64,000 bases of DNA from Patescibacteria group bacterium (GTDB taxonomy: Bacteria; Patescibacteriota; Patescibacteriia; 2-12-FULL-60-25): NCBI GenBank assembly GCA_043818395.1, contig JBDRFZ010000030.1:10704-74703 (forward strand), in the 5' to 3' direction. Shown piece by piece: positions 27,135 to 45,082 of this stretch. Position 1 is the stretch's first letter. Every line of letters begins with the position of its first letter. The position numbers and the translations under genes were made by a program. The notes under the pieces were generated by a model, which saw nothing but the letters and a program-made list of their open reading frames with translations, had not been told where the DNA came from and ran no database searches.

Positions 27135-27172
<38 letters not shown>

Positions 27173-28028: not shown

Positions 28029-28787
28029 GAACAAAGTGTTCCACAAGAAGTGGTCGGACCCTGTAAAAATTACAGGATTAACACTCGCCCGAATCCTGCC
28101 GCGAGGCGGGATAAGCAAACTGACTCATAACGGTGAATCCCACATTCCGACGGACATCGGAACGGGAAATACCGTGGGAACTCTGTATAATACAAAATAT
28201 TATGAAGAGACCCGTAACGACTGACCCGAAAGGGGAGAGCCGATGGACATCGGCTAACACGTCAGCTCTTGTAAGAAAAAAACAATCCAGGGAGACGGCA
28301 TCTTATATAACAGGATTCGTAGATGGCGAAGGAAGTTTCTTGGTTTCGTTTAATCGGCGATCTGGGCTCAAGACGGGCATCGAAGTCCGTCCGAGTTTCA
28401 GTCTAAGCCAACATAAACGCAATCTAAGTATCCTTCAGTCAATAAAAAATTTTTTCAGATGCGGAGGCATTCGTTTTGATCGGCATGATCAGACTTATAA
28501 ATACGAGGTCAGAAGCCTCGGTGATTTATGGAATAAGATCATACCGCATTTCAAGACGATTCCTCTTAAGACATCAAAAGCAAAGGATTTTGAACTTTTC
28601 AAAGAGGTCTGTTCACTCATGCGAGCGAACAGGCATCGTTCAAAAGCCGGTCTTGAAAAAATATTGCGAATTGCCTATTCAATGAATAATATAGGCGCCA
28701 GAAAATATAAGTTGTCAGATCTCCTAAAGATCGTTACAAGATGAAAGTATAGTCTGAACTCTGATGAAAATCAGAGATAACAAATGG
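28029..28787 (+). mobile_element. 23S intervening sequence 1 (intron-like, about 760 nt) carrying a LAGLIDADG ORF
   Basis: The conserved exon sequence CTTGTCGGGT stops at 28028 and resumes as AGTTCCGACCCGCACGAATGG at about 28788. By recalled E. coli numbering this is roughly position 1930. Junctions are accurate to about 2 nt. Confidence 0.75.
28202..28744 (+). CDS. single-motif LAGLIDADG homing endonuclease
   Basis: YITGFVDGEGSFLVSF motif. About 180 aa from MKRPVTTD, although the listed ORF allows an earlier start at 28133. Lies inside the 23S insertion. Confidence 0.85.
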   Translation: MKRPVTTDPKGESRWTSANTSALVRKKQSRETASYITGFVDGEGSFLVSFNRRSGLKTGIEVRPSFSLSQHKRNLSILQSIKNFFRCGGIRFDRHDQTYKYEVRSLGDLWNKIIPHFKTIPLKTSKAKDFELFKEVCSLMRANRHRSKAGLEKILRIAYSMNNIGARKYKLSDLLKIVTR

Positions 28788-29303
28788 AGTTCCGACCCGC
28801 ACGAATGGCATAACGAGTTTGCGACTGTCTCCACATGGGACTCGGTGAAATTGCAAGTGGGGTGAAGATGCCCTGTACGCGTAGTCAGACGAAAAGACCC
28901 CGTGAAGCTTTACTACAACTTGATATTGGGTCGCGGCTTTTCATGTTCAGAATAGGTGGGAGCCTTCGGGCAACAGTGAGATACCACCCTTGAACTGACG
29001 CGATTCTCGATCCCTATCCGTGAATCCGGATGGGGAGACAGTATCTGGTGGGTAGTTTAACTGGGGCGGTTGCCTCCTAAAAAGTAACGGAGGCGTTCAC
29101 AAAGGTCAGCTAGGCGCGGATGGAAATCGCGCTGATTCCGCAATGGGATAAGCTGGCTTAACTGCAAGACCAACAAGTCGAGCAGATGCGAAAGCAGGAC
29201 ATAGTGATCCGACCGTACGATATCGGACGGCGGAAGCTCAACGGATAAAAGCTACTCCGGGGATAACAGGCTGATCGCGCCCAAGCGTCCACAGCGACGG
29301 CGC

Positions 29304-29344
<41 letters not shown>

Positions 29345-29375
29345 TAGAAGCTCCCAAGGGTTTGGCTGTTCGCCA

Positions 29376-29419
<44 letters not shown>

Positions 29420-30186
29420 AAAGATCGTGCTGTCTATAAATTCGACTATATGCTGGAAACTCTGGTTTGACTTCCAATTAGGAGTTGGAGTCTAAAGAAT
29501 CTCATGCTACAGGTTATAATAAAAAAATTATGACACGTAAAAAAGCATTGAGTGCAGACAATCAGCAGGGAAGATTACATCATCGTCTTGAACCATGGTA
29601 TGTCAGTGGATTTATTGACGGCGAAGGCAGTTTTCATATCGCGATTTATCAAGATCAAATAATGAAAACTGGCTGGAAGGTTATTCCAGAATTTCATGTC
29701 TCGCAAAGAGTTTCGAGCCGGTGCGTCCTTGACGCACTTGTAAGATTCTTTAAATGCGGTTATGTGAAAATGAATCACCGATTGAATCCGAAAGATGTTA
29801 CCTATGTATATGTAGTAAGAGATCGAAAAGATTTAGCGACAAAAATCATGCCTTTTTTCCGCCGGTATAAGTTACAAACAGAGAAAAAAGAAGATTTTAA
29901 AAAGTTTTCTCAGATTATCGAGTTGATGTTAAATGAGCGTCATCGAACGTCTGTCGGACTAAAGCAGATCATAAAGATCGCATATTCTATGAATGGTTCC
30001 GGCCGTTATCGAAAACGACCAAAAAAGACGATTTTATAAAACCCTCAGAGACTATATGTCGAAAGCCGATATGCATCGGTTAAGATATAGTCCGAACTGC
30101 ATGGCGACATGCAGAGTCCGACGGAAACGTCGGATCGCCACGGAGCGAAATCAGATTATTGATGTGGTTTGCGAAGTAACAATGTG
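29420..30186 (+). mobile_element. 23S intervening sequence 2 (intron-like, 767 nt) carrying a LAGLIDADG ORF
   Basis: The exon GTCGTGAGACAGT ends at 29419 and resumes as TCGGTCTCCTGTCTAC at 30187. This lies within the peptidyl-transferase-centre strand, near E. coli position 2600 by recalled numbering. Confidence 0.8.
29530..30039 (+). CDS. single-motif LAGLIDADG homing endonuclease
   Basis: YVSGFIDGEGSFHIAI motif. About 169 aa from MTRKKALS. Lies inside the second 23S insertion. Confidence 0.85.
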   Translation: MTRKKALSADNQQGRLHHRLEPWYVSGFIDGEGSFHIAIYQDQIMKTGWKVIPEFHVSQRVSSRCVLDALVRFFKCGYVKMNHRLNPKDVTYVYVVRDRKDLATKIMPFFRRYKLQTEKKEDFKKFSQIIELMLNERHRTSVGLKQIIKIAYSMNGSGRYRKRPKKTIL

Positions 30187-30664
30187 TCGGTCTCCTGTCT
30201 ACTACGCGCGTGGAATATTGAGAGGGCAAATCTCTAGTACGAGAGGACCGAGATTTACGAACCTCTAGTGCACCAGCTGTCCCACCAGGGGCACCGTTGG
30301 GTAGCTACGTTCGGCGCGGATAAACGCTGAAAGCATATAAGCGTGAAGCCGTCCTCAAGATTAATATTCATTATGAGAGCCCTCCGAGACGAGGAGGTTG
30401 ATAGGCCGTATGTGTAAGACCTGCAAGGGTTTTAGCAGAGCGGTACTAATAGCTCCATGCTTCGACCATCCGGGATTACGATATCCAAAATCCGTAAAAT
30501 GATTTTGCGTATCACAATCCGGATATGGTTAGAAAAATTTTAAACGTGTACTTACATCAAGGTATGCCTTGTACGTACGACTTTCGATCATCAAAATGTG
30601 AAGCTTTTAACTTGCAGGTTACAGGCCTTATCCTTCGGCGATTATTCGTGATTTTTCATGGATA

Positions 30665-30785
30665 TCCGCCGGTGGCTTAAGCGGCAGTGTCACACCTGTT
30701 CCCTTTCCGAACACAGAAGTTAAGCCTGCTAGCAGCGATGGTACTTGGACCCAACCCGGTCCTGGAAGAGTAGCCCGTCGCCGGA
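30665..30785 (+). rRNA. rrf: 5S rRNA
   Basis: CCGAACACAGAAGTTAAGC and GATGGTACTTGG...CCTGGAAGAGTAG blocks. The terminal helix is TCCGCCGG pairing with TCGCCGGA. Confidence 0.9.
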
Positions 30786-30795
30786 CTAAACAGAT

Positions 30796-31781: not shown

Positions 31782-31984
31782 TTTTTAAGGTACAAGATTT
31801 CTATATGATAGCTTAGCGTTATTTTTAGGTCGAGTGGTTAAGTTGTTGAATATATCGTTTTTATCAAGTTTAGGTTATAAGCGATTTTTTTAGTCTTTAC
31901 ATACACATACATCAAAATATTAATAATTTTTATCTAATTTTAGCTTAATAGCTTAAATTTAGCTTAAAAATGTATATGTTACAC

Positions 31985-32013
31985 TTGACAAAAATTGAAA
32001 AGCATGCTATAGT
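31985..32013 (+). promoter_or_regulatory. near-consensus promoter pointing into the ORF-free left end of the GC-rich island
   Basis: TTGACA (31985-31990), a 17-nt spacer, then TATAGT (32008-32013). Confidence 0.5.
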
Positions 32014-32019
32014 GTTTGC

Positions 32020-32182
32020 GTAAAAATAAAGAAGGGTTGTAAAGGCAGTCTAGGCACCTTACAAATAAACTCAAAGGCTTGAAGGAGAGAGCAAGTCCGC
32101 GAATCCAATTTTATACACCAAGGGGTGATGGATTCGGGCGCTTTTTCCTAAAAGCTACCGAGTTCCATCACCCTTTTTGGTT
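32020..32182 (+). ncRNA. candidate ~160-nt terminated leader or sRNA
   Basis: Starts just downstream of the promoter. Hairpins TTGTAAAGG/CCTTACAA and GGCTTG/CAAGTCC are followed by a long terminator hairpin (32122-32132 pairing with 32164-32174, then TTTTT). There is no ORF. Confidence 0.35.
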
Positions 32183-32184
32183 GT

Positions 32185-32900
32185 CAGCTGGAACTTGAAA
32201 GGCAGACCCTACATTCTGCAAAACGGGCTTCGGCCCAAGCGCGGATACTCGAGGTACATAAAAAGCGGCTAGGGCAATAGTCAACAAAGTTTCGTTCGCT
32301 ACTCGCGAACACCGCCCAAAATACCGCTTCTCAATTCTGCCTTTCATATTCCAGCTCGCAAGAGCTTGAACCTTATAACTACCGCGATACTGATTGTTTT
32401 GGAGAATGAAATAGGAGAGAGATCCTGCTCCAAGATAATGAGTCGCATCTCTATTTGGTCCCGAACTAAAACGGGACAGTTGATTCGGAGTAATACCAAA
32501 ACCACCCGCCGAGAGAAGGGTGGCACGGCAAACAACCGGAGATCGACCTCGAAGTCCCTTAGAGAGACTTCGTAGTAACGAGTGCGTCCTGCCCTCTCCG
32601 ACCGTCGGAGGGGACCGGGACAGTCGCTACTACCATGGTTATGTAATAGACGACGGTCAGGACGCGACGAACTTTGACAACAAAATTCTGCTCAAGCGGA
32701 CGAACACCAATAACAATCATCTTGGGTTTCGTTTCGTCCTCTTAAGCAGAGCGCGGTTCTACTGAAGGAGTAACGCACTGGTGCGAAACTCTGGATGATA
32801 AACGGCGCTTGAAGAACGGAGGCCGGTGGCTAGATAAACCGCCGGTTAGAAAAATGGCAAAGTAGAACAAAAAAAATATCAAAATTAATTCGTTCGCGTC
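32185..32900 (+). ncRNA. candidate large structured RNA region (class unknown)
   Basis: No ORF of 60 aa or more has a ribosome-binding site. A 21-position helix with 19 pairs joins 32186-32206 to 32336-32356. A UUCG tetraloop hairpin lies at 32225-32236 and a GCAA tetraloop hairpin at 32353-32366. At least six further clean hairpins were noted, including 32458-32477, 32502-32523, 32550-32572 and 32584-32591/32658-32665. Confidence 0.35.
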
Positions 32901-33424
32901 AATTTTTTCCAAACAGTATTCAATAATAAGTTCGAGGCTCGCAATGAGCCAGAACAGAAAGGAGATCGAGAAAATAGCGGCACAGTTGAGTGCCGATCTC
33001 GCCGATCCGGAGCAGTTCCGGACGGTCATGGAGCTTGCGACCAACCGCTAGCTCCAAACCTCTCCCGCTGTTACGAGGTACAGCGGGAACAAAGAGGAAC
33101 CAACCTCAAAACGCACTCGGAGAGAAGCGCACACTTCTCATCCGATCCGAATTTTGGAAGCCCATAATTACTAAACTTGGGACTAAATCCAGACTTCAGA
33201 TCGGAGCAATCCGAAAATTACTCATGGATTCTCATTTGGCATCATAATCAAAGCGGCGGTAAAAAAGCCACCCACTGAGTTATGGAACCAAACGAGAAGC
33301 TATGAAGCCGGCACGGATAAATTCTGCACGTTGCAGGATCACGTGCGCGGTTGACGCGACTCAAACACGCACAAAACAAATATCGTGGAACGCCACGAGA
33401 ATACGTTTTGTGCAAAGGAGGCAG

Positions 33425-33610
33425 ATGGCCCATTGGCCAGCTTCCGGCCCCCACGGCCAGTGCCCGTGGTGTGGCGCGTCTGAAGACATCGGGGACTGCT
33501 GTCCCGATGCCCAGGCCGCCACCCGCGAGCCCGAGGCCGAGGGTTACCTCTGTGAGGGCGATGAAAACCGCTCTCACGGAGCCGACTCCACCCATCGGGT
33601 GGAGAATTAA
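33425..33610 (+). CDS. possible small Cys-rich protein (61 aa)
   Basis: AAAGGAGG lies 3 nt upstream of the ATG. The peptide MAHWPASGPHGQCPWCGAS...DCCPD has a zinc-ribbon-like Cys pattern. It could also be non-coding GC-rich sequence. Confidence 0.3.
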   Translation: MAHWPASGPHGQCPWCGASEDIGDCCPDAQAATREPEAEGYLCEGDENRSHGADSTHRVEN

Positions 33611-33826
33611 CCCCGGTGGGGAAACAAACGCACCGGCGTGAACCGGGACAGCTCGAACAGGGCGTCATGTGACGTCGTATCGAGTTGCGGGAGATGAGCG
33701 CCGCTTGAGGAGGGAGTGCAAGCGATCTTGCACGAGACTCCATGGCTCAAGCGCCGGAAATGACTGCCGGCGCCTAATCGCGGATTAGTCACCGCGTTTC
33801 GTACATTTCCCGGGTCTATCACCTGG

Positions 33827-34038
33827 GTTTGAGCAAAATCCTTGCTCTCTAAAACGACAGGTCGCGGCGCTTGATCACATGATCTAACATCGCGGGTTTC
33901 ACAGACCATGAATCACTCTTGAGTAATCAAGATCAATTCAAAACTGTGAGCTTGAGACGCCGTCTCCGTTTAGTAGAACGTAAAACTACAGCTACTCGCA
34001 TGCTCTCTTACGCTACTGCACAAGGCAATAGAGAGCAT
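33827..34038 (+). repeat. non-coding module A (paralog of module B)
   Basis: Shares these blocks with 35374-35603: GTTTGAGC(A/G)AAATCC, ATCGCGGGT(T/A)TCACAGACCATG, CAAAACTGTGAG(C/A)TTGAGACGC(C/A)GTCTCCGT and GAACGTAAA. It also shares a terminal hairpin whose loop contains CTGCACAAG. Confidence 0.75.
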
Positions 34039-34106
34039 CCGATCCTATTTCCGCACACTCCCATAAAGAAATCATTCTGGGTTCGTGGTTCGGAAATGAG
34101 ATCGGA

Positions 34107-34676
34107 TTATGGTCGGGCGTTTTCTTCCAATGCCGTTATTCGTTCTTCGTGGCGAAGACTGGCGTTCCGAAGGGAGGAAATCTCGATATCAACAGTCCGA
34201 TGATGCGTGGCGAACCAGTCAACATGCGTCAGAATCTCCTGCTTGAATTCTTGTAGATCATCCTTAGTCGCGAATCCAAGCAGATCATCCTTGGTGGCGA
34301 AACGCTCATCAAGGCGCCGGAATTGATCGTCTGTATGGGAAGATAGGTCGTGAACAGCCTCGAGTATGTCTTGAATTGAGGTTGTGTGTTCCTGGGAAAC
34401 AGATTTTAACCCTGCAACGTCCGTCTTCAGCTCGGTTACATCTGATTTTAACCCTGCAACGTCCGTCTTCAGCTCGGTTACATCCTTTGCAAGGATATTA
34501 ACCGTAGATTTGAGATCGGTCATGTCCTTCGTAAGACCGGCTACGCCTTTAGAAAGACCGGCCATGTCTTTAGAAAGGCCTTGGACTACATCTAAAATCT
34601 TTTCGTTGGCTGAATCAGCGGTCATATGGAGAGCATTAGTGAATGAAGAATAGCATCCTCTAAATACCGCTGCCAT
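34107..34676 (-). CDS. coiled-coil repeat protein (14-aa tandem repeats, ATKDDL motifs)
   Basis: 189-aa ORF. The repeat DVTELKTDVAGLKS occurs twice and FATKDDL occurs twice. The architecture parallels 45083..45478. The start (34676 or 34625) is uncertain. Confidence 0.55.
   Translation of the reverse strand: MAAVFRGCYSSFTNALHMTADSANEKILDVVQGLSKDMAGLSKGVAGLTKDMTDLKSTVNILAKDVTELKTDVAGLKSDVTELKTDVAGLKSVSQEHTTSIQDILEAVHDLSSHTDDQFRRLDERFATKDDLLGFATKDDLQEFKQEILTHVDWFATHHRTVDIEISSLRNASLRHEERITALEENARP
34402..34485. repeat. near-perfect 2 x 42-bp tandem duplication inside the coiled-coil gene
   Basis: GATTTTAACCCTGCAACGTCCGTCTTCAGCTCGGTTACATC(T/C) at 34402-34443 and 34444-34485. The two copies differ only at the last base. 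Confidence 0.9.
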
Positions 34677-34995
34677 AAATCGAGGGAGAGGTCAAGATGT
34701 GGATATTCGGAAACAGCGTTTTCTCGGTAGAAATCGTGATTCGAAAAAGTTCGAAGCACGATTTCTCTCGAGGAGAGAGAAAATTTTGATCGGATGATCT
34801 GAAGCGACGTCTCATACGTGAGCGAATCAAATCAGGCTCGGATCGAACGGCCGCGCGTAACGGTCGATAGCTCCATCGAGAGGTGAAGAAGAAACGTAAG
34901 CGCGGCTCCGACGCATTCGGGCAAGCGAACTCGGCGGATATTGAAACCCGCCTTTCAGAATGGAGCCCGCGGCTAGATAAACCGCGGGAGAGAAC

Positions 34996-35337
34996 ATGGC
35001 CGGCACCTACACCGTCACCGCCACCTCCGTCACCGCCACCTCCACCCCCGCCACCCTGCTCCGGTTGAGCTTCGGCTCGCCGGCGCAGAACGACGTCATC
35101 GTCCGCGACGCCGTCGTCGCCCTCGAGGCCCACAAGCTCGAGGGGGGGAAGCTGGTCCTACTGAATGGGCCCGCTTCCCTGCCAGTGGCTTGCGCCCTCG
35201 CGCACGGCCTCGGGCACATCTTCGGCGCCATCGGGGTCTTCGACCCCAAGATGGCGGGGTACGTAGTCGCGGTCAGTCATGACCCGACGTTCCCCGTGGG
35301 GATGACCATCCCAGCGTCGGAGGTGAAAGAGGGCTGA
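34996..35337 (+). CDS. Csx3-like protein (CARF-related cyclic-oligoadenylate ring nuclease family, Crn3)
   Basis: The segment GKLVLLNGPASLPVACALAHGLGHIFGAIGVFDPKMAGYVVAVSHDP matches my recollection of A. fulgidus Csx3 (G.VISGRGPIWLHCFLAHKYHH...AVYDPRLGAVVVQSH), including the His/Asp positions. Not verified by search. Confidence 0.5.
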   Translation: MAGTYTVTATSVTATSTPATLLRLSFGSPAQNDVIVRDAVVALEAHKLEGGKLVLLNGPASLPVACALAHGLGHIFGAIGVFDPKMAGYVVAVSHDPTFPVGMTIPASEVKEG

Positions 35338-35373
35338 TCACCCTCTCGAAACATATCTCGGATTGATCTCCGA

Positions 35374-35603
35374 GTTTGAGCGAAATCCCAGCTCTAGAAA
35401 ATGATGGGTCGTGATACGAGATCGAGAGATTAAGTATCGCGGGTATCACAGACCATGGAATTAGAAAAAAGTATCGTGTACTGAGTACCGGGTACTATCT
35501 CTCTAAACTCCAAAACTGTGAGATTGAGACGCAGTCTCCGTCCGTGGAACGTAAATTCACTAACACTCGAAACCCACCTAAGCCCTGCACAAGCTGCGGT
35601 GGG
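35374..35603 (+). repeat. non-coding module B (paralog of module A; its terminal hairpin is a paralog of 45023-45068)
   Basis: See module A for the shared blocks. The hairpin ACCCACC/GGTGGGT carries a loop containing CTGCACAAG. Confidence 0.75.
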
Positions 35604-35800
35604 TTCCTCGAACTGAATGTTTAAAAAAATGTCGTCTCGACTAAAACGGAGAGACCTTCAATTTGAAGATCCATTCGACTCGGCCACGGTTCTATTTTTT
35701 GGATAGGCCTTCGCTCAGGATGACAATTTTTAAACGCTCGATTCGAGGAAATGGTTCCTCCAAAACTTTCCCGCAGAACGCGGGAGAAAGGAGACGGCTA

Positions 35801-36385
35801 GTGAAAGTCGTACTCTGTGGACCCCCGCGTTCGGGGAAGTCCTGCCTAAGGCAGGGCTTAAAGGACGCGGTACGGAGCATTCCTGGGGCTCCGTACCCCT
35901 ACGTCATCACCGCGTGCCCCGACGGGGAGGGCTCGTGGTTCCAGGAGACGGTGAACTCCGACCCCGAGGCTGCTGCGAAGTTCAAGGCGGCCTACAAGAG
36001 CAAGTTCACCCCCGAGTTCGTGCGCAGGGTCGCGGACTCGGTGAAAAACTGCACCCTGTCTCTTACGCTGGTGGATATAGGCGGTATCCCCAGCGCAGAG
36101 AATAAAGAAATTTGCGCCGCCGCCACGCACGCCGTTCTTCTCGCAGGGGATACCTCGCGGTTCCCCGAGTGGCGTGAGTTTTGCGAGAAACTCGGAATCT
36201 CTGTCCTGGCCGAGATTGCGAGTAACTACCAAGGCCAGGAAGACTCCCCGCCGTATCTCGACGGCGACGAGGGAGTCTTCGTCGGTTCGGTTCACCACCT
36301 CGAACGCGGTGAACCGGTCGCAGAGCGCCCGACTGTCAAGGCGCTCGCCGAGATTCTGGTCGCGTTGGTCGGCGATCAGGAGTAG
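35801..36385 (+). CDS. P-loop NTPase (kinase/ATPase-like), function unknown
   Basis: AAAGGAGA SD and a GTG start. Walker A (VVLCGPPRSGKSC), an ACPDGEGSW segment and a Walker-B-like LSLTLVDIGG. Confidence 0.6.
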   Translation: MKVVLCGPPRSGKSCLRQGLKDAVRSIPGAPYPYVITACPDGEGSWFQETVNSDPEAAAKFKAAYKSKFTPEFVRRVADSVKNCTLSLTLVDIGGIPSAENKEICAAATHAVLLAGDTSRFPEWREFCEKLGISVLAEIASNYQGQEDSPPYLDGDEGVFVGSVHHLERGEPVAERPTVKALAEILVALVGDQE

Positions 36386-36405
36386 TTAGACCAACCGGGC
36401 GAAGA

Positions 36406-36737
36406 GATCCCTCGACTTCGCTCGGGACGACAGAGGGCAGGAGATATAGCGACTCCTCTTTTAAACAATTCGCTTATCACTCGAAGCTCGGTTGCACATC
36501 CGGGCTCTTCGAATGGAAGTTTGATTGAATTCGTCATTCCCGGGAAAATGGGAATCCAGGTAGCTTGCTGATGGATCCCCGCTTTCGCGAGGATGACGTA
36601 GATCGAAAATCCGTTCGAGGAAGAGTTCCTTGTGTTTTTCTTTCCGCACAGGTCCGGAACAGATGCCTATTTTGACGGATGAGTCAGATGACTCTCTCCG
36701 TCAGGCTACCTGTTATCTTAGGGGGAAGTTCCGGATC
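36406..36737. repeat. left copy of a ~300-bp imperfect direct repeat (E and D modules)
   Basis: E1 (36406-36459) and D1 (36653-36737) are colinear with E2 (43904-43956) and D2 (44123-44207). Shared strings include ACAGAGGGCAGGAGATA, ACTCTCTCCG and GGAAGTTCCGGATC. Confidence 0.6.
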
Positions 36738-36759
36738 GGTGCGGGAATAAAAAACAAAA

Positions 36760-36984
36760 TCAAATTAGTTTTATAAAGTCTTCCGGTGACAGATCGATAT
36801 CGCGCAAAATGCCTCTGAGCGTACCGCGCGGCAAGTCTTGATTGCCATGCATGGGGATGGTTGCCAACCGACCATCACGATGGCGTAATTGAACATGGCT
36901 GCCGCGTTGTCGCGTAATCATAAACCCTGCTTTTTGCAGGGTTGCGATCAATATTTTACCGGAGATAACCGGAAGCGGCGGCAT
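36760..36984 (-). CDS. hicA: HicA-family mRNA interferase toxin
   Basis: 74 aa. GKILIATLQKAGF ... RQRGSHVQLRH is a typical HicA/YcfA core. Confidence 0.85.
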   Translation of the reverse strand: MPPLPVISGKILIATLQKAGFMITRQRGSHVQLRHRDGRLATIPMHGNQDLPRGTLRGILRDIDLSPEDFIKLI

Positions 36985-36989
36985 AACGA

Positions 36990-37223
36990 TCAGATTTGCG
37001 GTTCAGCTACTGTCTCGAAAGTCTCAAAGCTTCTGTCTTCCGGAAGTGACTCGCGATTGGCTGCCATATCTTCCAAATAAAGCTGGATGGCTTCGCGGAT
37101 ATTTTGTTTGGTTTCTTCCAAGGATTTGCCCCAGGTATGACAACCGGGCAACGAAGGTACGAAAGCATGAAAAGACTGACCCTCATCCGGCTCGATGATT
37201 ACTCGATAAGTCAATGCTCTCAT
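36990..37223 (-). CDS. hicB: HicB-family antitoxin (N-terminal UPF0150 fold only)
   Basis: YRVIIEPDEGQSFHAFVPSLPGCHTWGKSLEETKQNIREAIQLYLE. Sits directly upstream of hicA. Start taken at MRALTYR. Confidence 0.8.
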   Translation of the reverse strand: MRALTYRVIIEPDEGQSFHAFVPSLPGCHTWGKSLEETKQNIREAIQLYLEDMAANRESLPEDRSFETFETVAEPQI

Positions 37224-37253
37224 ATGTCTGAAGCCTAACATCGGACGGACGGC

Positions 37254-37403: not shown

Positions 37404-37754
37404 ATGGCCAAAAAAATTCTCTGGATGTCGCGCCATCGACCGACGGCGCGGCAGATCCAGTCGCTCCGCGTCATGTATGGCGCGGATACGGTCGTCGAAG
37501 TGGAGCCGCGGCCCTTCGACGACGCGCGACAGATCGCGCGGCGATTCAAGGAAGGCGGATTCCACGATCTCGTGGTCGTGGCGCCGCTTTCGGTCCTGGC
37601 TGTCTTGTGCGATCAGGGGCTTAAACCTCTGTGGTCACAGGCGGCCGAGGAAAACGATCCCGCGAAGATCGAATTTCGCGGGGCACGTGGGCAGGGCTAC
37701 CGCTTCGTCCGGTTTCGCCGAGTGAAGCGAGTGGCAGTCGAGTTTGAGGACTAA
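37404..37754 (+). CDS. hypothetical protein (116 aa)
   Basis: GGAGGA SD 4 nt upstream of the ATG. GC-rich codon usage consistent with the neighbouring genes. No motif recognised. Confidence 0.5.
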   Translation: MAKKILWMSRHRPTARQIQSLRVMYGADTVVEVEPRPFDDARQIARRFKEGGFHDLVVVAPLSVLAVLCDQGLKPLWSQAAEENDPAKIEFRGARGQGYRFVRFRRVKRVAVEFED

Positions 37755-37778: not shown

Positions 37779-38051
37779 ATGGTCCAGAAAGTCTGGACCC
37801 TGGCTTCGGGTCAGGAGGTCGTGGATCGCGACGTCTCGCATATCCATGCGGGCGTCACGGACGAACTCTTATCCGAGGCACTCTCGTCGCTAAGCGTAGG
37901 TGACGGAGAGCGGGTCAAATATACGCATTTCTTCAGACGCACGGTCGGTGTCTCCCATTGCGTGAAAACGCAGGACGGGGAAGCTCCGAAGCGTCATGGG
38001 CAAGCGGTCATCTGCCTTTTTGTGGACAAGATAAACGGGTGCGGGAGTTGA
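37779..38051 (+). CDS. hypothetical protein (90 aa)
   Basis: AGGAAAGGA SD-like stretch before the ATG, 24 nt after the previous stop. Confidence 0.4.
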   Translation: MVQKVWTLASGQEVVDRDVSHIHAGVTDELLSEALSSLSVGDGERVKYTHFFRRTVGVSHCVKTQDGEAPKRHGQAVICLFVDKINGCGS

Positions 38052-38605: not shown

Positions 38606-39820
38606 GTGAGTGATCTCAAAACGGCCGTTGCCCTGGCGGCCAAGATCCAGGGCATTTCAAAGGACGTCCTCGCGCGCCACATTGGGCGCGGGGACGTGGT
38701 GCGAGCCACCTGGCTCGCACTCGTGAGCGGCCGTCCGGCCTTCTTCCTCGGGCCTCCCGGGGTGGACAAGACCGGGACGGTTCAGGATTTGGCGCGTAGG
38801 GTCGACGGAGCCGTCTTTTTTGACGCGCTCATGCCGACCCTCGTCTCGGTCGAGCAGCTCCTCGTGGAGAGTACCTCCATCGAGGAGTCGTCGACGGCGG
38901 ATGGCGGAAAGTCCATCCGTACGCGCGACACGCTCGGCCGCGCTGCCGGCGCGCATCTCCTCTTCGCCGATGAGATCTGGAAAGCAGAACCCCGTGTTCT
39001 GCAGACGGTTCTCGACCTGGCGAAAGGGGACGGCGTGCGCCACGAGGGAACGCAGGTCAAGACGCCTCTCAAGGCGTTCTTGGCCGCGTCCAACGAGCTC
39101 CCTGACTCCGAGGGAAACCTCGGCGCGGTTTGGTCTCGTATGACCATCCGCGTCGTAGTCAAGGAGCTCGATCGCAAAGGCAAAACCGCGTTGGTCAAGG
39201 CGCGGTTGGCCAAAGTACGTGGCATGTCTGCCAAGGCCAGCGGGAGCGACAAGCTCACGCTCGCCGAAGTGGACGATCTGCGCGCTGCGCGCAGCCGGAT
39301 CGAAATCTCGGATGAAATCGTGGAGATCGTGCTCGACATCGTCGAGCAGCTCCGCGATGAAAACTCCGGAACGTTCGACTGGGCCTGGGCCGACGACCGG
39401 CGTTTCGGTCGCGTGTTCGACGTCATGCAGGCTAACGCCTTGCTCGATGGCCGAACGCGGGTCGGAAAACAGGACCTCGCGGTTCTGGAGTGGCTACTCT
39501 GGGATTCACCCGAGCAGATTCCGACGGTCAAGGCCAAGATCGCGCCGTTTTGCCGCACTCCGCTCATGGATGCACAGGAGATGCTCGACGCACTCCTGGC
39601 TCCCGGAGGGGTTGTGGCAGATGTGCTCGGCGGCAACCGGACCAAAGGCGTGGCGGCTCTGACGCAGTGTGAAAGCTGCGCCGGTGAGCTTGCTACGCTC
39701 AAGGCCAGCGCTGACGCGAGTATGGCGCAGGGCATCGACCAGCTGGTCCGGCAGCTGGAGTCCGTGAAAGCGGACGTGATCGCAGTGATCACCGGAACGC
39801 GGACGTCCGCCGCGAAATAG
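38606..39820 (+). CDS. MoxR-like AAA+ ATPase
   Basis: Walker A (FFLGPPGVDKTG), Walker B (LLFADEIWKAEP) and the following VLQTVLDL...G segment are typical of MoxR/AAA_5 ATPases. GTG start. Confidence 0.75.
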   Translation: MSDLKTAVALAAKIQGISKDVLARHIGRGDVVRATWLALVSGRPAFFLGPPGVDKTGTVQDLARRVDGAVFFDALMPTLVSVEQLLVESTSIEESSTADGGKSIRTRDTLGRAAGAHLLFADEIWKAEPRVLQTVLDLAKGDGVRHEGTQVKTPLKAFLAASNELPDSEGNLGAVWSRMTIRVVVKELDRKGKTALVKARLAKVRGMSAKASGSDKLTLAEVDDLRAARSRIEISDEIVEIVLDIVEQLRDENSGTFDWAWADDRRFGRVFDVMQANALLDGRTRVGKQDLAVLEWLLWDSPEQIPTVKAKIAPFCRTPLMDAQEMLDALLAPGGVVADVLGGNRTKGVAALTQCESCAGELATLKASADASMAQGIDQLVRQLESVKADVIAVITGTRTSAAK

Positions 39821-39861: not shown

Positions 39862-41652
39862 GTGGAAGAAACTCGAAAGGGCGGACCCGCGTGTCCGCCC
39901 ATCGCGCGACAGGAGCTGCAAAAGCTCCTGGTGACGGACGCGGACGCCTTTACGGCGCTCCGCTACCTCCGTCACCGCGAGAACGTTCCCTCGCTCCCGG
40001 ATCTGGAAGAGCAGGGCCGCAAGGCTCTGCCCGGGATTGAGGGTAGTCTCTGCGACCTCTACCACACGCTTTGGGCGCCAGAGCCCAGCGTGAAGGAAGA
40101 GGTTGCGTCGGACCGCCGTTACTGGCGTGAGTTGCTCGGTGAGGCTGTGAAATCCACGGCATACGCCGAGCTGCATGCCAGTACGCAGCTCTCGGAGCTA
40201 AAGTCCGTACTGGGCACCGTGGCCATGGGTGAAACCGTGGTCAAGACGGTGTCCAAGGAGGACGCTGAGAAGCTGCAAGAGACGGCAACTGCGCAACGTG
40301 AGGCCGACGATGCGCAGCAAGAAGCAGACCAGGCGCAAGCCGCGGCAGACATGGCGCAAGCCATGTTCGAATCCGCGAATGCGCAAGCTGGTCAGGGCCA
40401 GGGGAGCGGAGGATCTCAAAAAGATCCTTCGACTACGCTTCGCTCCGCTCAGGACGACAGTTCTGGCGGACAGCTGCAGCCCGGCCAGGGCAAACCCGGA
40501 AAAAGATCCCTCGACTCCGCTCGGGACGACAATTCGTCATCGACCGGTGGGCGAGGGACACTGACCCCGGAGCAAGCCAAGGCGTTGGCTGACGCACTGG
40601 CTGATGAGTGGCTCAAAGCGCAGGAATGCGCCGAGGCCGCGAATCAGTTAGCCGCCGAAGCCAAAGCCAAGGCCGAAGCCCTGGCTAATGAACTTCTGGG
40701 CCAACCCGGCAAGCAGCAAGCGGAGCAAAAGCTTCGCGAACTGGCGCGCGCCGGGCAAGCGGCAATCAAGGCCGCACAAGCCAAGGTGGAGGAGGTTTCC
40801 GAAACCATCGAGGCTTGGGGACTTGAGGAAGCCGAGCTCACGCGCCAGAGCATTCCCGAAGCATTGGGTTTGCTCGAGCGCATGAAGCGAAGTGCGGCAC
40901 TCAAGAAGTTCGCGGCTCTGCTCGGTCGCTTGCGCAAGATCGCGGCTCGCAAAGCGCGATCCAAAACGCAGGCCAGAGGCGTACGCATTGCTATCCCGGA
41001 AACGGGACGCGACATGCGCCGCGCCTACCCGAGCGAGCTGGTGGCTCTCGCACATCCGGCGACCCGCACCCAAGCGCTCAAGCGCTGGGCACGCGGCGAG
41101 CTGCGATTGCGCGGCGAGCAAGCTAAGCAAAAGCTTGGCCATGGCCCGGTCATCGTCTGCGAAGACGCGTCCGGGTCCATGGATGGAGCCAAGCAACAGT
41201 GGGCCAAGGGAGTAGTTCTTTCCCTGGCGCACTTTGCAAAACTCCAGAAGCGGTCGTTCGGTTGGATCATGTTCGATTCCCGAGTTCATCGGGCGGAAGA
41301 ATATCCTGCCGGGCGCATCGCGGCCAAGCAGATGCTTGATATCGTGGAGTCCCACGCCGGTGGCGGCACGGACTTCGAACGCCCACTGCGCAAAGCGCTG
41401 GAAATGGTGAAACAAACCGGCCTCAAAAAGGCCGACATCTGCTTCATCACCGACGGCGAATGCGCAGTGAGCGAAACTTTCCTGCGGGAATTTAAAGCGG
41501 CTAAACGCGAACTTGAAATCAATGTCTTCACGATTCTGTGCGACGTTGGTTCGAGCGCGGACAGCACCGTCAGCGAATTCTCTGACAGGATCGAAACGGT
41601 TTCCAGCTTCTCGGCAGAAGAAGCGGAGACCAAGGTGTTTGGTTCTTTGTAG
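39862..41652 (+). CDS. vWA-domain protein with an acidic, low-complexity linker (CoxE/CobT-like architecture)
   Basis: AAGGAGGA SD and a GTG start. The C-terminal vWA domain has the MIDAS motif (VCEDASGSMDG) plus GGGTDFERPL and FITDGE. The central linker is Ala/Gln/Asp-rich. Confidence 0.8.
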   Translation: MEETRKGGPACPPIARQELQKLLVTDADAFTALRYLRHRENVPSLPDLEEQGRKALPGIEGSLCDLYHTLWAPEPSVKEEVASDRRYWRELLGEAVKSTAYAELHASTQLSELKSVLGTVAMGETVVKTVSKEDAEKLQETATAQREADDAQQEADQAQAAADMAQAMFESANAQAGQGQGSGGSQKDPSTTLRSAQDDSSGGQLQPGQGKPGKRSLDSARDDNSSSTGGRGTLTPEQAKALADALADEWLKAQECAEAANQLAAEAKAKAEALANELLGQPGKQQAEQKLRELARAGQAAIKAAQAKVEEVSETIEAWGLEEAELTRQSIPEALGLLERMKRSAALKKFAALLGRLRKIAARKARSKTQARGVRIAIPETGRDMRRAYPSELVALAHPATRTQALKRWARGELRLRGEQAKQKLGHGPVIVCEDASGSMDGAKQQWAKGVVLSLAHFAKLQKRSFGWIMFDSRVHRAEEYPAGRIAAKQMLDIVESHAGGGTDFERPLRKALEMVKQTGLKKADICFITDGECAVSETFLREFKAAKRELEINVFTILCDVGSSADSTVSEFSDRIETVSSFSAEEAETKVFGSL

Positions 41653-41822: not shown

Positions 41823-43886
41823 ATGGCCGAGAAAAGAATTGAAACAGTCCTGGCCAAGGCCGGGAATAACCCGGCCGAAGCGGTGGCCACCATTGGCCGC
41901 CGCAGCATCTGTTTCCTGCCGCGCGGCGTTACGCCCGGGCAGGAGGTCCGTGTCGAGCTCGTTGAGCTCGGCAAAAATGACAGCCGCGGAAATCCAATGT
42001 TCCGCGGCGTGGCCGCTCCCACGGAGACCGTGGTCGAGTGGCGTGAACTCGACGGCAGGTTCGAGAGCGTTGAGTTCTCGGTCGACTGGAAGCTCCAGAA
42101 GACCGAGAAACGCGTGCTCGAGAGCCGCGTGCCAGTCAAGCGCGACGGCGTACCGAGTCGCAACGCGAGCTTCAAGGTCGACTGGGCTCAGTCGTTCACC
42201 GACGCCCGGATCAAGGTCGAAATCAAGACTGAGATCCCGGAGCTCGAGGAACAACTCGGCTCTAACGGGCCGGCGATGATCGAGAAGACTCGCCGTGACG
42301 GCGGCACCACGGTCGAAGAGTTTGCGCTCAAGACCCTGGAGCCCTGCCGCTCGGGCTACGTCGACTCCAATGACTGGCACGGTAAGCGTCTGCGTGCCAG
42401 TTATGAGGGAGAGCCGAAGCTGTTCGTTAGCTTCATACTTTCCTACGGCGAGAAGTCGTTCGAGACCAACTCGCAAGAGTGGTCTTCACTGCCGACGTGG
42501 CTCAAGGAGCAACTCTCGGCCCCGTATCCGCTCTGCGGATGCGGGCAGTCTCGTTTCGATTCTGCGGGGCATCATGCCTGCGCAGACTGCGAGACGATCG
42601 AGCGCGTTCTCCCGGCCGAAAAGCGGCAGGAGATCGCGGCGCTTGCCGAGAAGCTCCTTGCCGTGGAGCCTCTGCCTCGCGAAGCCGGCGAGATCGTGCT
42701 CAAGTCAACGCTTGGGCATGTGACGTCGGAATACACGCGCGACAGTATTCTCCGCCAGTGGTCCGGGTTCGCCTGGTACTACTTTGCGGGTGATGGCGTG
42801 TACGGGAGCAAGTTCCCGCGATCCGCGCTCCAGGTTCTGCGTTTCATTGCGCAGGCCGAAGGCGATGGATTGTTGGAGCTCGCGGCCTGGCTCTGCGGTC
42901 GCGACAAGGCGGACGACTGCGAGCGCTACGGAGATTACTTCGTGGCGACGCAAGTCAAAGGCGAGAGCCGGTCGCGCACGCTCCAGAGCAACCGCGACGC
43001 CACGGCCGCAATTCGCCTGCGCGGCTCTGAAGCCGACCGTTTGGCTGCGCTCGAAGCGTATGCCGAAATGGTCGAGGTTTGGGGTAAGGATTCGAGCCAG
43101 GCGGAATCGCTTAACACGATTCTGCAGGGTGAGAGTCAGGACTATAGCCAGGCCATGGCCAAGGCGCAGGACGCGCTGCGACTCCATGAAGCACGGACGC
43201 GCGCCATCCAAGCCGGAGAAATTTGGCAGGATGTCCGTGTGAATTGGGAAGAAAGTAGTAATGGCCGAGCCCGTGGCAAAGGCTGGGCCATTGCGCCGGA
43301 TGGAGAGTTCTACCCGGAATTAGATGGCGATGCTCACGCCTTCGGTGACCTGCCAACCAACACGCTTGTGCTTTCGCACAGCACCTCGGATTATGGCTAC
43401 CGCTATACCGAATGCTGGACGGTTCACAAGCTGCCCAAGCAGGTCACGGGTGAGCAGCACGTGGCGCTTACAGGACTCCTTCAAGGGGAACGGCAGTTTT
43501 TCTGCGGTGATCGGGCGACGTGGAATCTAACCCGCGAGGGGACTGTTCGCATCGCCACCGCTTACCACAGAGACTTCGTCGGGACCGATGCCGAAGCGCA
43601 TCGGGCCATGCGTGGCACCTTGCCCATGGATTTGTCCAGATGGTTCCTGTATGAAGTCATGCAGGACGAACATGGATATGATCTGCAGGAAGCGATGCTG
43701 GAAGTCTGGCATCGCGAGGTGCGCGACGCGCATGGCATGCGCCTGCGGTATCGCCCGGCGGCTGCTGCAAAGCAGTTCAAGAAGGTCGCTCCCGCCAACG
43801 TCAAGCCCGCAAGCGCTGAGCAGGTCACAACTTCGCTCGGCGCTCTCAAGGCCAAGTTCGGCGGCCGTCGCGAAAAGCGCCGCTAA
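41823..43886 (+). CDS. large hypothetical protein (687 aa), third member of the MoxR-vWA cassette
   Basis: AAGGAGG SD. Long GC-rich ORF with an internal CGCG...C..C cysteine cluster. No domain recognised by eye. Confidence 0.65.
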   Translation: MAEKRIETVLAKAGNNPAEAVATIGRRSICFLPRGVTPGQEVRVELVELGKNDSRGNPMFRGVAAPTETVVEWRELDGRFESVEFSVDWKLQKTEKRVLESRVPVKRDGVPSRNASFKVDWAQSFTDARIKVEIKTEIPELEEQLGSNGPAMIEKTRRDGGTTVEEFALKTLEPCRSGYVDSNDWHGKRLRASYEGEPKLFVSFILSYGEKSFETNSQEWSSLPTWLKEQLSAPYPLCGCGQSRFDSAGHHACADCETIERVLPAEKRQEIAALAEKLLAVEPLPREAGEIVLKSTLGHVTSEYTRDSILRQWSGFAWYYFAGDGVYGSKFPRSALQVLRFIAQAEGDGLLELAAWLCGRDKADDCERYGDYFVATQVKGESRSRTLQSNRDATAAIRLRGSEADRLAALEAYAEMVEVWGKDSSQAESLNTILQGESQDYSQAMAKAQDALRLHEARTRAIQAGEIWQDVRVNWEESSNGRARGKGWAIAPDGEFYPELDGDAHAFGDLPTNTLVLSHSTSDYGYRYTECWTVHKLPKQVTGEQHVALTGLLQGERQFFCGDRATWNLTREGTVRIATAYHRDFVGTDAEAHRAMRGTLPMDLSRWFLYEVMQDEHGYDLQEAMLEVWHREVRDAHGMRLRYRPAAAAKQFKKVAPANVKPASAEQVTTSLGALKAKFGGRREKRR

Positions 43887-43903
43887 AAAAACCCGAATAA
43901 AAT

Positions 43904-44207: not shown

Positions 44208-44385
44208 TATGCGGAAAAAATGTAAAAAACACTCATGGTCATGAGTCTGATTAAAGTTAGACTCATGCCTATGATTGGGCAGATGGTTCAAATCCACACG
44301 AATAAGACGCGAAGCAATTATGTCGGACGTTTGAATGATCCAAGACTGGATCGATCGTGTGGAGGAGAGCAAGAAGGAAATAGAA

Positions 44386-45063: not shown

Positions 45064-45082
45064 TTTTATTTTTAGATGAATT

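Follow-up and report, generated by a model that had tools for sequence, protein, structure and literature searches.

A Csx3-family protein paired with a P-loop NTPase heads a conserved MoxR-vWA gene block in a CPR bacterium

In a 64-kb stretch (here, the window) of a metagenome-assembled genome from the Patescibacteria (CPR), a gene for a Csx3/Crn3-family protein and a gene for a P-loop NTPase form an obligate pair at the head of a conserved block that is rich in GC and about 9 kb long. The pair has no CRISPR link in CPR bacteria, and the MoxR-vWA-F9 subfamily encoded in the block is obligately tied to it. We lean toward reading this split Csx3/P-loop NTPase module as the CRISPR-free sensing and nucleotide-processing front end of a horizontally mobile system. 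The pair would thus be a CRISPR-independent module for nucleotide sensing and cleavage in a conflict-type system, with a putative ligand and putative coupling among the proteins; gene context points to a role in conflict or defense for the block as a whole. Because a conserved MoxR-vWA system is headed by Csx3 in a CRISPR-poor CPR bacterium, the Csx3 enzyme family probably works outside CRISPR.

In the literature, Csx3/Crn3 is the off switch of type III CRISPR signaling, and its fused “AAA” partner has been without known function since 2018. As far as the literature was searched, three points are new: (i) the predicted fold of the Csx3 partner is SIMIBI GTPase/kinase-like and not AAA+, (ii) the two-part module recurs, with neither arrays nor Cas10 close by, across the CPR bacteria, a lineage with hardly any CRISPR-Cas, and (iii) one MoxR-vWA-F9 subfamily is almost never found without the Csx3-NTPase module. 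An initial annotation of this DNA had proposed, as one of two possibilities, a lone anti-signaling device in a CRISPR-free setting; its Csx3 assignment, the NTPase partner, and the CRISPR-free window stand, while the lone device is disfavored.

Gene content of the window

Both open reading frames of the pair (34996-35337 and 35801-36385) were confirmed, and they lie in the following setting.

34996-35337, plus strand: Csx3/Crn3-family protein, 113 aa (Pfam, PADLOC, PDB matches, residue conservation, AF2/Foldseek)
35338-35800, no strand: intergenic gap, 463 nt (repeat scans, blastn, folding, Rfam)
35801-36385, plus strand: P-loop NTPase, 194 aa (PADLOC PDLC01045, AF2, Foldseek)
36393-36759, no strand: repeat element immediately behind the stop codon of the NTPase gene (repeat comparison; strong folding on both strands)
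36760-36984, minus strand: HicA toxin (Pfam HicA_toxin, 5.5e-19)
36990-37241, minus strand: HicB antitoxin (Pfam HicB_lk_antitox, 1.3e-13)
37404-37754, plus strand (the ORF opens at 37332): F16, conserved protein of about 116 aa (family HMM, E 1.2e-52)
37779-38051, plus strand: F11, conserved small helical protein of about 90 aa with no Pfam match (family HMM, E 5.6e-12)
38606-39820, plus strand: MoxR-type AAA+ ATPase, 404 aa (Pfam bpMoxR, 3.1e-18, AAA_lid_8, and AAA_5; family HMM, 3e-171)
39862-41652, plus strand: vWA protein, 596 aa (Pfam VWA_CoxE and VWA_2; family HMM, 2e-263; phrog_24053, 3.3e-59)
41823-43886, plus strand: F9, 687 aa (family HMM, 9e-197)
44335-44964, plus strand: 209-aa protein (tblastn, 54% identity over 186 aa to positions 11568-12392 of locus L016)
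52428-53294, minus strand: TrmB-family regulator (F1 HMM, 8.2e-45; Pfam TrmB, 1.2e-12)

The Csx3-family protein

The Csx3/Crn3 identity that had been proposed from a sequence motif is borne out by profile searches. Pfam PF09620 (Cas_csx3) matches residues 35 to 105 of the 113-aa protein with 31.3 bits against a gathering cutoff of 21, four PADLOC Csx3 models match it (E 1.5e-15 to 1.6e-05), and it aligns to positions 12 to 104 of the PADLOC Csx3-AAA model (E 4.3e-15). The NCBIfam equivalog TIGR02579 scores 23.1 bits (E 6.5e-05), under its cutoff of 55.4 bits. Judged by these profiles, the protein is a member of the Csx3 family but not an equivalog of the characterized enzymes. Its best five PDB sequence matches are all Csx3 of Archaeoglobus fulgidus (AfCsx3), with E values of 0.12 for the single sequence and 0.002 for the family profile.

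The His/His/Asp/His motif is real and conserved. Across 26 CPR homologs there is no variation at N57-G58-P59-A60-S61-L62-P63, H74, D83, P84, or H95, and hardly any at H70 or K85. H70, H74, and H95 align to H57, H60/H61 (with a register uncertainty of one residue), and H80 of AfCsx3, where H57, H60, and H80 are absolutely conserved histidines, and are candidate Mn2+-site residues. The invariant D83 corresponds to the catalytic D69 of AfCsx3, whereas R71, an absolutely conserved residue of that enzyme, is replaced by K85; a Lys at this position is nearly invariant across the entire NTPase-associated subfamily, including its type III-linked members. At the positions that contact cA4 in AfCsx3, G45 is kept (G58), while S44, R46, and I49 are replaced by N57, P59, and L62. 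AfCsx3 (AF_1864; PDB 3WZI and 6YUD) and the window protein are of similar size (about 110 aa) and share H57, D69, H80, and G45, with a histidine at or next to H60; they differ at R71 (K in the window protein), R46 (P), and S44 (N), and the window protein further has an obligate NTPase partner and no CRISPR link.

The AF2 model of the protein is of high confidence (pLDDT, 96.5). Its top Foldseek match is the cA4-bound domain of Cat1 (TM, 0.63 to 0.69), followed by weak STAS and SAVED/CARF matches; AfCsx3 chains are not among the best 50. The motifs of the CPR proteins are common to type III-linked cyanobacterial Csx3, so that an oligoadenylate-type ligand would be the most economical assumption for CPR Csx3. 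Degradation of cA4 as a ring nuclease is a putative function: R71 is replaced by K and R46 by P, and no cyclase was found among the genes searched (see below).

The P-loop NTPase

The initial annotation had also noted a Walker-motif NTPase with a CPDGEGSW segment downstream and had suggested, tentatively, that Csx3 domains can be linked to such ATPases. The NTPase is present, its gene has a GTG start with AGGAG 7 nt upstream, and the motifs comprise Walker A/G1 (GPPRSGKS), CPDGEGSW, and a G3-like DIGG within LVDIGG, the Walker B region being of the hhhhDxGG form. The suggested link is correct and specific, because the protein matches positions 108 to 285 of the 286-position PADLOC PDLC01045 “Csx3-AAA” model (E 8.8e-58). 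The AF2 model (pLDDT, 87) is nearest in Foldseek searches to the GPN-loop GTPase Npa3, FtsY/Ffh, Cfd1, MinD, and small P-loop kinases such as dephospho-CoA kinase (TM, 0.4 to 0.6). No AAA+ protein is among the Foldseek matches, and no Pfam AAA family reaches its cutoff for this protein. The NTPase is thus the counterpart of the “AAA” half of Csx3-AAA, yet its modeled fold resembles that of the SIMIBI GTPases and kinases rather than AAA+ (ASCE) proteins.

Csx3-AAA proteins (cluster 35 of Shah et al. 2018; PADLOC PDLC01045; e.g., Slr7080 of Synechocystis pSYSA), for which no function is given in the literature up to 2025, have the same two domains as the window pair. The window has two genes 463 nt apart instead of one polypeptide, in a CPR host, with no adjacent type III cas genes or arrays, and the linked genes differ: F16-F11-MoxR-vWA-F9 in the window, but Cas10, RAMP proteins, a WCX-domain protein, and HD_4 for Csx3-AAA.

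The NTPase has more than 1,000 homologs, and identity to the cyanobacterial Csx3-AAA members is 36 to 53%. Very high conservation within its closest relatives (the 119 best nonidentical matches are 69 to 81% identical), together with a fold like that of small nucleotide kinases, could indicate a housekeeping pair of CPR nucleotide or RNA metabolism unrelated to conflict. This we consider extremely improbable. The distribution is patchy (matches in 192 of 185,579 species genomes), the GC content of the genes is consistently offset from that of the host, and linkage is to HicAB and MoxR-vWA in this genome and to CRISPR in other phyla.

CRISPR-Cas and signal generators

The reported absence of CRISPR-Cas from the window holds under every search made. 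No array was found in the 64 kb by a tandem-repeat scan, a direct-repeat scan, or a purpose-written array finder. A PADLOC scan of 62 ORFs gave no cas gene in the window among the best 25 of 58 families, Pfam gave none on the 10 largest window ORFs, and HMMs built from the Cas10, RAMP, and Cas1 neighbors of cyanobacterial homologs had no match in the window.

The pair could nevertheless be an ordinary type III accessory acting in trans, its Cas10 locus lying elsewhere in the genome, beyond the 64 kb. The searches covered 64 kb of a 79-kb contig, ring nucleases do occur in effector-less loci and may act in trans, and CRISPR-Cas is known in some CPR lineages (PMC6509639). However, no array and no Cas10 were found in about 50 CPR-type loci (within ±10 kb), whereas most non-CPR loci have cas genes, arrays, or both (arrays in 11; Cas10, RAMP, or Cas1 families in 17). 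Moreover, CRISPR-Cas was found in only 1.4% of genomes of the host lineage (PMC4742961), and the pair has a conserved CPR neighborhood of its own that is different. An in trans accessory is therefore quite unlikely.

Pairing and the conserved gene block

The window Csx3 gene had been called an orphan and the NTPase gene separate; the comparison of loci contradicts both. Nearly all of 80 genome loci carry both domains, as fused or adjacent genes in either order, which makes the two an obligate pair. Fusions were confirmed by Pfam. In cyanobacteria the two are fused or adjacent and abut Cas10 modules, while CPR loci almost always have two distinct genes, whichever comes first, and never beside cas genes.

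In the window, the pair stands at the head of a multigene block in the order Csx3, P-loop NTPase, inserted HicAB, F16, F11, MoxR, vWA, and F9. HicAB, itself a conflict-type gene pair, separates the Csx3-NTPase pair from the rest of the block in this genome; in related loci F16, F11, and HD_4 recur at this place, F16 between the pair and MoxR and F11 just upstream of MoxR. F16 has no Pfam or PHROG match. Metagenome loci were anchored by a scan with a narrow alignment of this MoxR subfamily. Upstream of MoxR, 22 of 23 such loci carry a P-loop gene, and in nearly all of these a Csx3 domain can be recognized, either fused to it or encoded separately; vWA and F9 follow downstream in all 20 that have enough downstream sequence. 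Conversely, when CPR loci are anchored on the P-loop gene instead, the MoxR module is present in only about 10 of about 54, which indicates that the pair also works without it. An earlier suggestion that Csx3 is the off switch of an unrecognized system encoded nearby comes close to the position of the pair as the conserved front end of the F16-F11-MoxR-vWA-F9 block. Neither the window nor the recurrent neighbors yielded a cyclase or other source of a signal.

MoxR-vWA ternary systems (Kaur, Burroughs, Iyer, and Aravind 2020) consist of a MoxR AAA+ protein, a vWA protein, and a conserved third protein; the window has such a set as well, likewise in a conflict-island context. The described classes of third component are VMAP, iSTAND, FtsH, and a beta-propeller fused C-terminal to vWA; in the window this place is taken by F9, which was compared with Pfam, PADLOC, and PHROG profiles and has no match among them. 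An invariant Cys-x-Cys-Gly…Cys pattern in F9 suggests a zinc ribbon. [quoted passage not shown] A further difference is that in the window Csx3 has its own gene and a P-loop NTPase as partner. The multicellularity statistics of Kaur et al. omit CPR bacteria, for lack of information (PMC7159879).

Within such a setting, Csx3 might instead serve a MoxR-vWA conflict system as its effector RNase, either a Mn-dependent deadenylase or a trimmer of RNA 3' ends, with the NTPase regulating or licensing it and no cyclic-nucleotide signal involved. Kaur et al. report a Csx3 domain combined with a MoxR-vWA ternary system in a cyanobacterium and place it among the RNase domains treated as effectors of these systems (PMC7159879), and AfCsx3 cleaves RNA in vitro (PMC7371418). 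The lack of a cyclase and the obligate linkage of the MoxR subfamily to the pair agree with this. On the other hand, CPR Csx3 is closest to type III-linked cyanobacterial Csx3, a context that implies cOA; the H-face and D-face residues needed for a cA4-sandwich active site are both conserved; and MoxR-vWA is missing from about 80% of the CPR loci that carry the pair. We regard an RNase effector as fairly unlikely, though it deserves more weight than the other alternatives considered here.

Mobility and viral relatives

The GC content of the system is 0.59 against 0.45 for the flanks in the window, and in 13 loci the system lies above its flanks by 5 to 18 percentage points. This foreign composition would suit an anti-signaling role, in which a mobile island brings along a ring nuclease that neutralizes the recipient cell's cOA-based immunity (type III or CBASS-like). 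There is established precedent in viral ring nucleases such as AcrIII-1, which are stand-alone cOA-degrading enzymes without CRISPR, and free, partnerless Csx3 genes of the window subfamily are likewise found on six IMG/VR viral contigs, one of them adjoining an HD_4 gene. AcrIII-1-type enzymes, however, belong to a different fold family (DUF1874), and the window Csx3 is accompanied by an NTPase that has no match in IMG/VR or among GenBank phages. Plasmid matches of this partner are cyanobacterial only, and the pair is absent from other plasmids. In addition, the low incidence of CRISPR-Cas in the host lineage leaves little to neutralize, searches of the island turned up neither an integrase nor phage structural genes, and the pair sits in a conserved, cellular-type multigene system. 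A lone anti-type III or anti-CBASS device is thus disfavored, and we judge the anti-signaling role very improbable. A prophage origin of the island was also rejected: the PHROG matches of its proteins are limited to MoxR, vWA, and a coiled-coil protein, and the Csx3-bearing viral contigs lack the rest of the system.

Beyond the block, a homolog of the 209-aa protein, which has no Pfam or family match, adjoins the pair in locus L016. In about 30 CPR loci the pair is flanked by TrmB. The homolog in the window lies 16 kb away and has host-like GC content; TrmB was therefore rejected as an obligate partner and may instead mark a conserved chromosomal neighborhood. The gene-poor stretch at 31782-34106 has no homolog among the proteins of the comparison loci.

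A model for the module

AfCsx3 forms ligand-sandwich tetramers and filaments (PMC7371418). By analogy, Csx3 dimers of the favored front-end module would bind a ligand of the oligoadenylate type, either cA4-like or the 3' end of an RNA, sandwiched between dimers as in AfCsx3, and the Csx3 oligomer would draw together the GTPase-like P-loop subunits. NTPases of this class work by nucleotide-dependent dimerization. The MoxR-vWA chaperone pair and F9 could then receive the NTP-dependent output of the P-loop subunits, or gate it, and Mn2+-dependent cleavage by Csx3, with H70/H74/H95 on one face and D83/K85 on the other, would reset the switch. In a bolder version, which is speculative and which we think unlikely, CPR bacteria run a Cas10-independent oligonucleotide signaling system: the P-loop protein (with the HD_4 phosphohydrolase of many related loci) would make or modify the signal, Csx3 would sense and erase it, and MoxR-vWA-F9 would execute the response. 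If true, this would be a new class of nucleotide-signaling immune system and would explain the “AAA” partner of Csx3 in type III loci. Under the front-end reading, the block is a candidate defense system for CPR bacteria, whose antiphage repertoire is poorly known, and may shed light on Slr7080-type proteins in cyanobacterial type III loci.

The intergenic gap and repeat elements

The Csx3 gene ends with a stop codon at 35335-35337, and the NTPase gene lies in a different frame with its own ribosome-binding site. The gap was rejected as an intron or insertion that splits a fused gene: the frames differ, the genes have their own ribosome-binding sites, and CPR loci as a rule carry two separate genes, with either one first. 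It was likewise rejected as a specific structured RNA or riboswitch. The gap folds strongly (z of about -6.5 and -4.9 on the two strands), but so do the other intergenic stretches tested nearby (z, -2.5 to -8), no Rfam family matches it, and only its first 73 nt are kept after Csx3 in two other CPR loci (blastn). The rest consists of dispersed palindromic repeat: 35374-35541 resembles 33827-33984, and the 46-nt hairpin located at about 35564-35611 has further copies at 45020-45064 and in other CPR genomes. The repeat at 36393-36759 has a second copy directly after the F9 stop codon (43890-44229).

Csx3 gene and its NTPase partner

The initial annotation had claimed an orphan gene for a Csx3-like ring nuclease plus an NTPase gene, without CRISPR-Cas in the 64 kb. 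Both open reading frames lie where it had placed them.

Csx3, NTPase and the following genes in window order (F16, F11 and F9 are neighbour protein families)
34996-35337, + strand: ORF1, Csx3-family protein, 113 aa (Pfam and PADLOC), first gene
35801-36385, + strand: ORF2, P-loop NTPase, 194 aa, GTG start, AGGAG 7 nt upstream
36760-37241, - strand: HicA/HicB
37404-37754: F16
37779-38051: F11
38606-39820: MoxR
39862-41652: vWA
41823-43886: F9

ORF1 belongs to the Csx3 family, matching PF09620 (Cas_csx3) with 31.3 bits against a gathering score of 21 and five PADLOC Csx3 models (best E 1.5e-15); it misses the NCBIfam equivalog cut-off (23.1 versus 55.4 bits). Public annotation already calls it Csx3, so this identification is not new, and enters the NTPase as hypothetical. 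The novelty lies in the context: in CPR bacteria, a split Csx3/GTPase-like module that is independent of CRISPR heads a conserved MoxR-vWA-F9 system. The best matches of ORF1 in a PDB sequence search were all Archaeoglobus fulgidus Csx3 (AfCsx3, AF_1864), at E 0.12 from the single sequence and E 0.002 when a 26-homologue profile was used. The search alignment was used to map the AfCsx3 residues that are essential or absolutely conserved (Athukoralage et al. 2020, PMC7371418).

AfCsx3 residues and their equivalents in the window protein
H57: H70
H60: H74 (register uncertain by one residue)
D69: D83
H80: H95
G45: G58
R71: K85 (differs)
R46: P59 (differs)
S44: N57 (differs)

The 26 CPR homologues show no variation at H74, D83, P84, H95 or in the motif NGPASLP, and almost none at H70 and K85; the candidate catalytic His and Asp residues are conserved, as had been proposed. 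The AlphaFold model of ORF1 is confident (pLDDT 96.5). In structure comparison it comes closest to the cA4-bound domain of Cat1 (TM 0.63-0.69; cA4, cyclic tetra-adenylate), with weak STAS and SAVED/CARF matches ranking next, and AfCsx3 itself is absent among the structural matches listed. At the 5' end of the gene, a 15-nt tandem repeat (35012-35055) yields a duplicated TVTATS-type segment, modeled confidently as an N-terminal beta-hairpin whose length differs among homologues.

ORF1 and ORF2 match adjoining parts of the PADLOC “Csx3-AAA” model (positions 12 to 104 and 108 to 285 of 286, respectively; E 8.8e-58 for ORF2). The link between Csx3 and ATPases that the initial annotation mentioned with reserve is therefore right, ORF2 being the specific NTPase partner of Csx3, and the family identity of both genes is established. 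Shah et al. 2018 (PMC6546367) introduced Csx3-AAA as a type III accessory found chiefly in cyanobacteria and guessed that cyclic oligoadenylate (cOA) bound to Csx3 allosterically controls the ATPase; later papers still describe the ATPase domain as “of unknown function.” The ORF2 model (pLDDT 87) has its closest structures at modest TM-scores of 0.4 to 0.6, namely SIMIBI-class proteins (GPN-loop GTPase Npa3, FtsY/Ffh, Cfd1, and MinD) and small P-loop kinases (dephospho-CoA, adenylate, and shikimate kinases). No AAA+ protein is among the matches listed; judging from the predicted structure, the “AAA” partner of Csx3 is not an AAA+ protein. Its conserved motifs are GTPase-like (G1 GPPRSGKS, an invariant T37 followed by CPDGEG, and a G3-like LVDIGG), and other invariant charged residues are E100, H110, D117, H165, and E168-R169-G170-E171. 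A search of 1.8 billion representatives retrieved 608 NTPase relatives, which include stand-alone proteins as well as fusions with Csx3 (at either end) or with HD phosphohydrolase domains.

Separate and fused forms

In a scan of one genome per species, an NTPase relative was found in 192 species, and the best 80 of these loci were scored with HMMs of both halves. Among these 80, Csx3 and NTPase are nearly always separate genes in CPR-type genomes, with gaps from a few nt up to 463 nt. The CPR order is mostly NTPase-Csx3; the reverse occurs in the window and about eight other loci. In cyanobacteria the genes are either adjacent or form a Csx3-NTPase fusion (about 305 aa), often preceded closely by a second, free Csx3; Poribacteria and Thioploca have the fusion in reverse order. 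From these arrangements, the split in the window is a normal state of a two-module system; a broken gene was rejected because separate genes are usual in CPR loci. The pairing itself is obligate.

A second CPR arrangement (compared loci L053, L055, L052, L057, L062, and L067) consists of a longer NTPase gene (product about 240-445 aa) of host-like GC content, a TrmB gene on the opposite strand, thus inside the module, and a GC-rich Csx3 gene. Cyanobacterial loci L071, L074, and L083 have a free Csx3 of 101 aa ahead of the fusion. In the fused Csx3 domain, the counterparts of H74 and H95 are Q rather than histidine in L071 and L083, and that of H74 alone in L074; the free upstream Csx3 of L071 and L083 keeps intact histidines. 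This pattern suggests a division into a putatively noncatalytic sensor and a catalytic eraser.

Absence of CRISPR-Cas

No CRISPR-Cas was detected in the window beyond the Csx3 pair. No array was found by tandem-repeat scan, direct-repeat scan, or a simple array finder; no further cas genes were among the PADLOC matches listed for 62 window ORFs or found by Pfam in the ten largest; and HMMs from Cas10, RAMP, and Cas1 genes flanking cyanobacterial homologues had no match. Among the 80 loci, 11 outside CPR contain arrays and 17 outside CPR contain Cas10, RAMP, or Cas1 families, with Cas10 confirmed by Pfam; in CPR-type loci, neither an array nor Cas10 is present. The local context of the pair in CPR is CRISPR-independent. 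CRISPR-Cas was reported in 1.4% of 354 high-quality genomes of Parcubacteria, Microgenomates, and related phyla, mostly CPR (Burstein et al. 2016, PMC4742961). A type III locus elsewhere, with Csx3 acting in trans, is improbable given the CPR-wide pattern.

MoxR-vWA-F9 block

Neighbours of the pair were clustered into families and annotated. CPR-specific neighbours include, in about 30 loci, a TrmB-family regulator encoded on the opposite strand and, in about 12, a GNAT-domain protein of about 850 aa. About 10 CPR loci, including the window, carry a block encoding the small proteins F16 (about 116-148 aa) and F11 (about 90-100 aa), a MoxR ATPase of the AAA+ type, a vWA protein, and F9 (about 690 aa), sometimes with an HD_4 phosphohydrolase; no Pfam family matches F9, F16, or F11.

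As a converse test, a metagenome scan anchored on this MoxR subfamily gave 52 loci, which were scored with family HMMs. The NTPase gene lies upstream of MoxR in 22 of the 23 loci having at least 4 kb upstream. A separate Csx3 accompanies it in 16 of these 22 (in two with a weak match only, E 0.007). In the remaining six the NTPase protein is long; Pfam places a Csx3 domain at its C-terminus in the three tested and also in a fourth long NTPase, encoded in a locus with shorter flanking sequence. Downstream, vWA and F9 are present in 20/20 loci with enough sequence. Thus, the MoxR-vWA-F9 subfamily is tied nearly obligately to the Csx3/NTPase module, which also occurs alone. The GC content of the block exceeds that of its flanks by 5 to 18 points in 13 loci (0.59 versus 0.45 in the window, where GC3 of the larger genes is 0.68-0.78), and this distinct composition argues for horizontal mobility.

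Kaur et al. 2020 (PMC7159879) divided MoxR-vWA ternary conflict systems into four classes, and the window system appears to fit none of them: there is no space in its vWA protein for a propeller at the C-terminus, and F9 has no assigned class. In our literature search, only that paper mentioned Csx3 and MoxR together, and no paper mentioning Csx3 was among the matches listed for Csx3 with CPR terms.

Proposed mechanism and alternatives

By sequence comparison, CPR Csx3 falls in the same subfamily as type III-linked cyanobacterial Csx3, which suggests that its ligand would most simply be an oligoadenylate. SIMIBI-type NTPases work through nucleotide-dependent dimerisation. AfCsx3 dimers enclose cA4 between them, and the protein assembles into tetramers or filaments (PMC7371418). 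On both grounds, ligand-driven Csx3 assembly could switch the NTPase, whose output would feed the MoxR-vWA-F9 machinery, and Csx3 cleavage would then reset the system. The sensor/eraser pattern of L071 and L083 is a supporting hint.

The main weakness of this mechanism is the missing signal generator, none having been found in the window or among recurrent neighbours. The missing cyclase agrees with Csx3 being an RNase effector instead, as does the report of a Csx3 domain with one cyanobacterial system, listed among RNase domains treated as effectors (Kaur et al. 2020, PMC7159879); we consider this rather unlikely. A housekeeping role seems very improbable.

The interpretation in the initial annotation stands as to the Csx3 family, the NTPase partner, and the lack of CRISPR-Cas in the window; an anti-signalling device is disfavoured. 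Free Csx3 genes on six large viral contigs, one adjoining an HD_4 gene, would agree with such a device; however, NTPase, vWA, and F9 are absent from these contigs, and we regard it as quite improbable for the window.

The viral contigs themselves (L087-L092, from IMG/VR; 12.6-155 kb, five of them at least 74 kb) carry Csx3 genes whose products belong to the same subfamily, at 45-52% identity; the catalytic residues are intact in most of them, and in L089 the HD_4 gene follows. These free Csx3 proteins are candidate phage ring nucleases (anti-cOA).

Repeats and other features of the window

The 463-nt spacer between ORF1 and ORF2 folds far more stably than shuffled controls (z = -6.6). As a dedicated RNA it was rejected, since the opposite strand and other intergenic stretches tested in the region fold comparably (z -2.5 to -8) and Rfam gave no match. 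The 73 nt that follow the Csx3 stop codon have conserved counterparts in two further CPR loci, and the remainder of the spacer consists of copies of dispersed palindromic repeats, found too at 33827-33984 and 45020-45064; we read the spacer as REP/MITE-like filler. A palindromic element of ~46 nt (…AACCCACC…GGTGGGTT…), present at about 35564-35611 and 45020-45064, recurs close to the corresponding genes in other CPR genomes (L008, 597-642; L048, 11178-11228 and 12191-12239) with up to 95% identity and is a dispersed hairpin repeat common to different genomes.

Two copies of a ~350-nt repeat, with conserved ends and a diverged middle, directly follow the NTPase stop (36393-36759) and the F9 stop (43890-44229), bracketing HicAB and F16-F11-MoxR-vWA-F9; they may be the trace of a recombination event, or else a terminator or regulatory element present twice. 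Farther upstream, 31782-34106 is a gene-poor, locally GC-rich (0.55-0.62) stretch of 2.3 kb with short overlapping ORFs only and no homologue among proteins of the compared loci. It is bracketed by copies of Csx3-flanking repeats (32822-32851 resembles 34965-34994, and 33827-33984 resembles 35374-35555), as if a decayed cassette occupied the same position as Csx3. No RNA family matched within this stretch, either from 32500 on at a permissive setting or in the whole-window scan at gathering scores.

Other features of the window
28133-28744: LAGLIDADG homing-endonuclease ORF inside the 23S match
29485-30039: second LAGLIDADG ORF, between the 23S end and 5S (30668-30786)
34107-34676, - strand: coiled-coil protein, 189 aa
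12071-13564, - strand: GC-rich ORF, 497 aa, no Pfam match
15072-17687, + strand: GC-rich ORF, 871 aa, no Pfam match

The 23S rRNA match (region 25885-30786) is 3589 nt long, whereas the model has 2925 positions; being over-long with a LAGLIDADG ORF inside, the gene probably carries an intron. No 16S gene is adjacent to 23S/5S. The only matches of the coiled-coil protein are weak ones of coiled-coil type, to LmuB/JetC and to head and tail proteins of phages; its gene contains a perfect 42-nt tandem duplication (34402-34484). The two GC-rich ORFs (0.54-0.55 versus a background of 0.44) may be other foreign genes.
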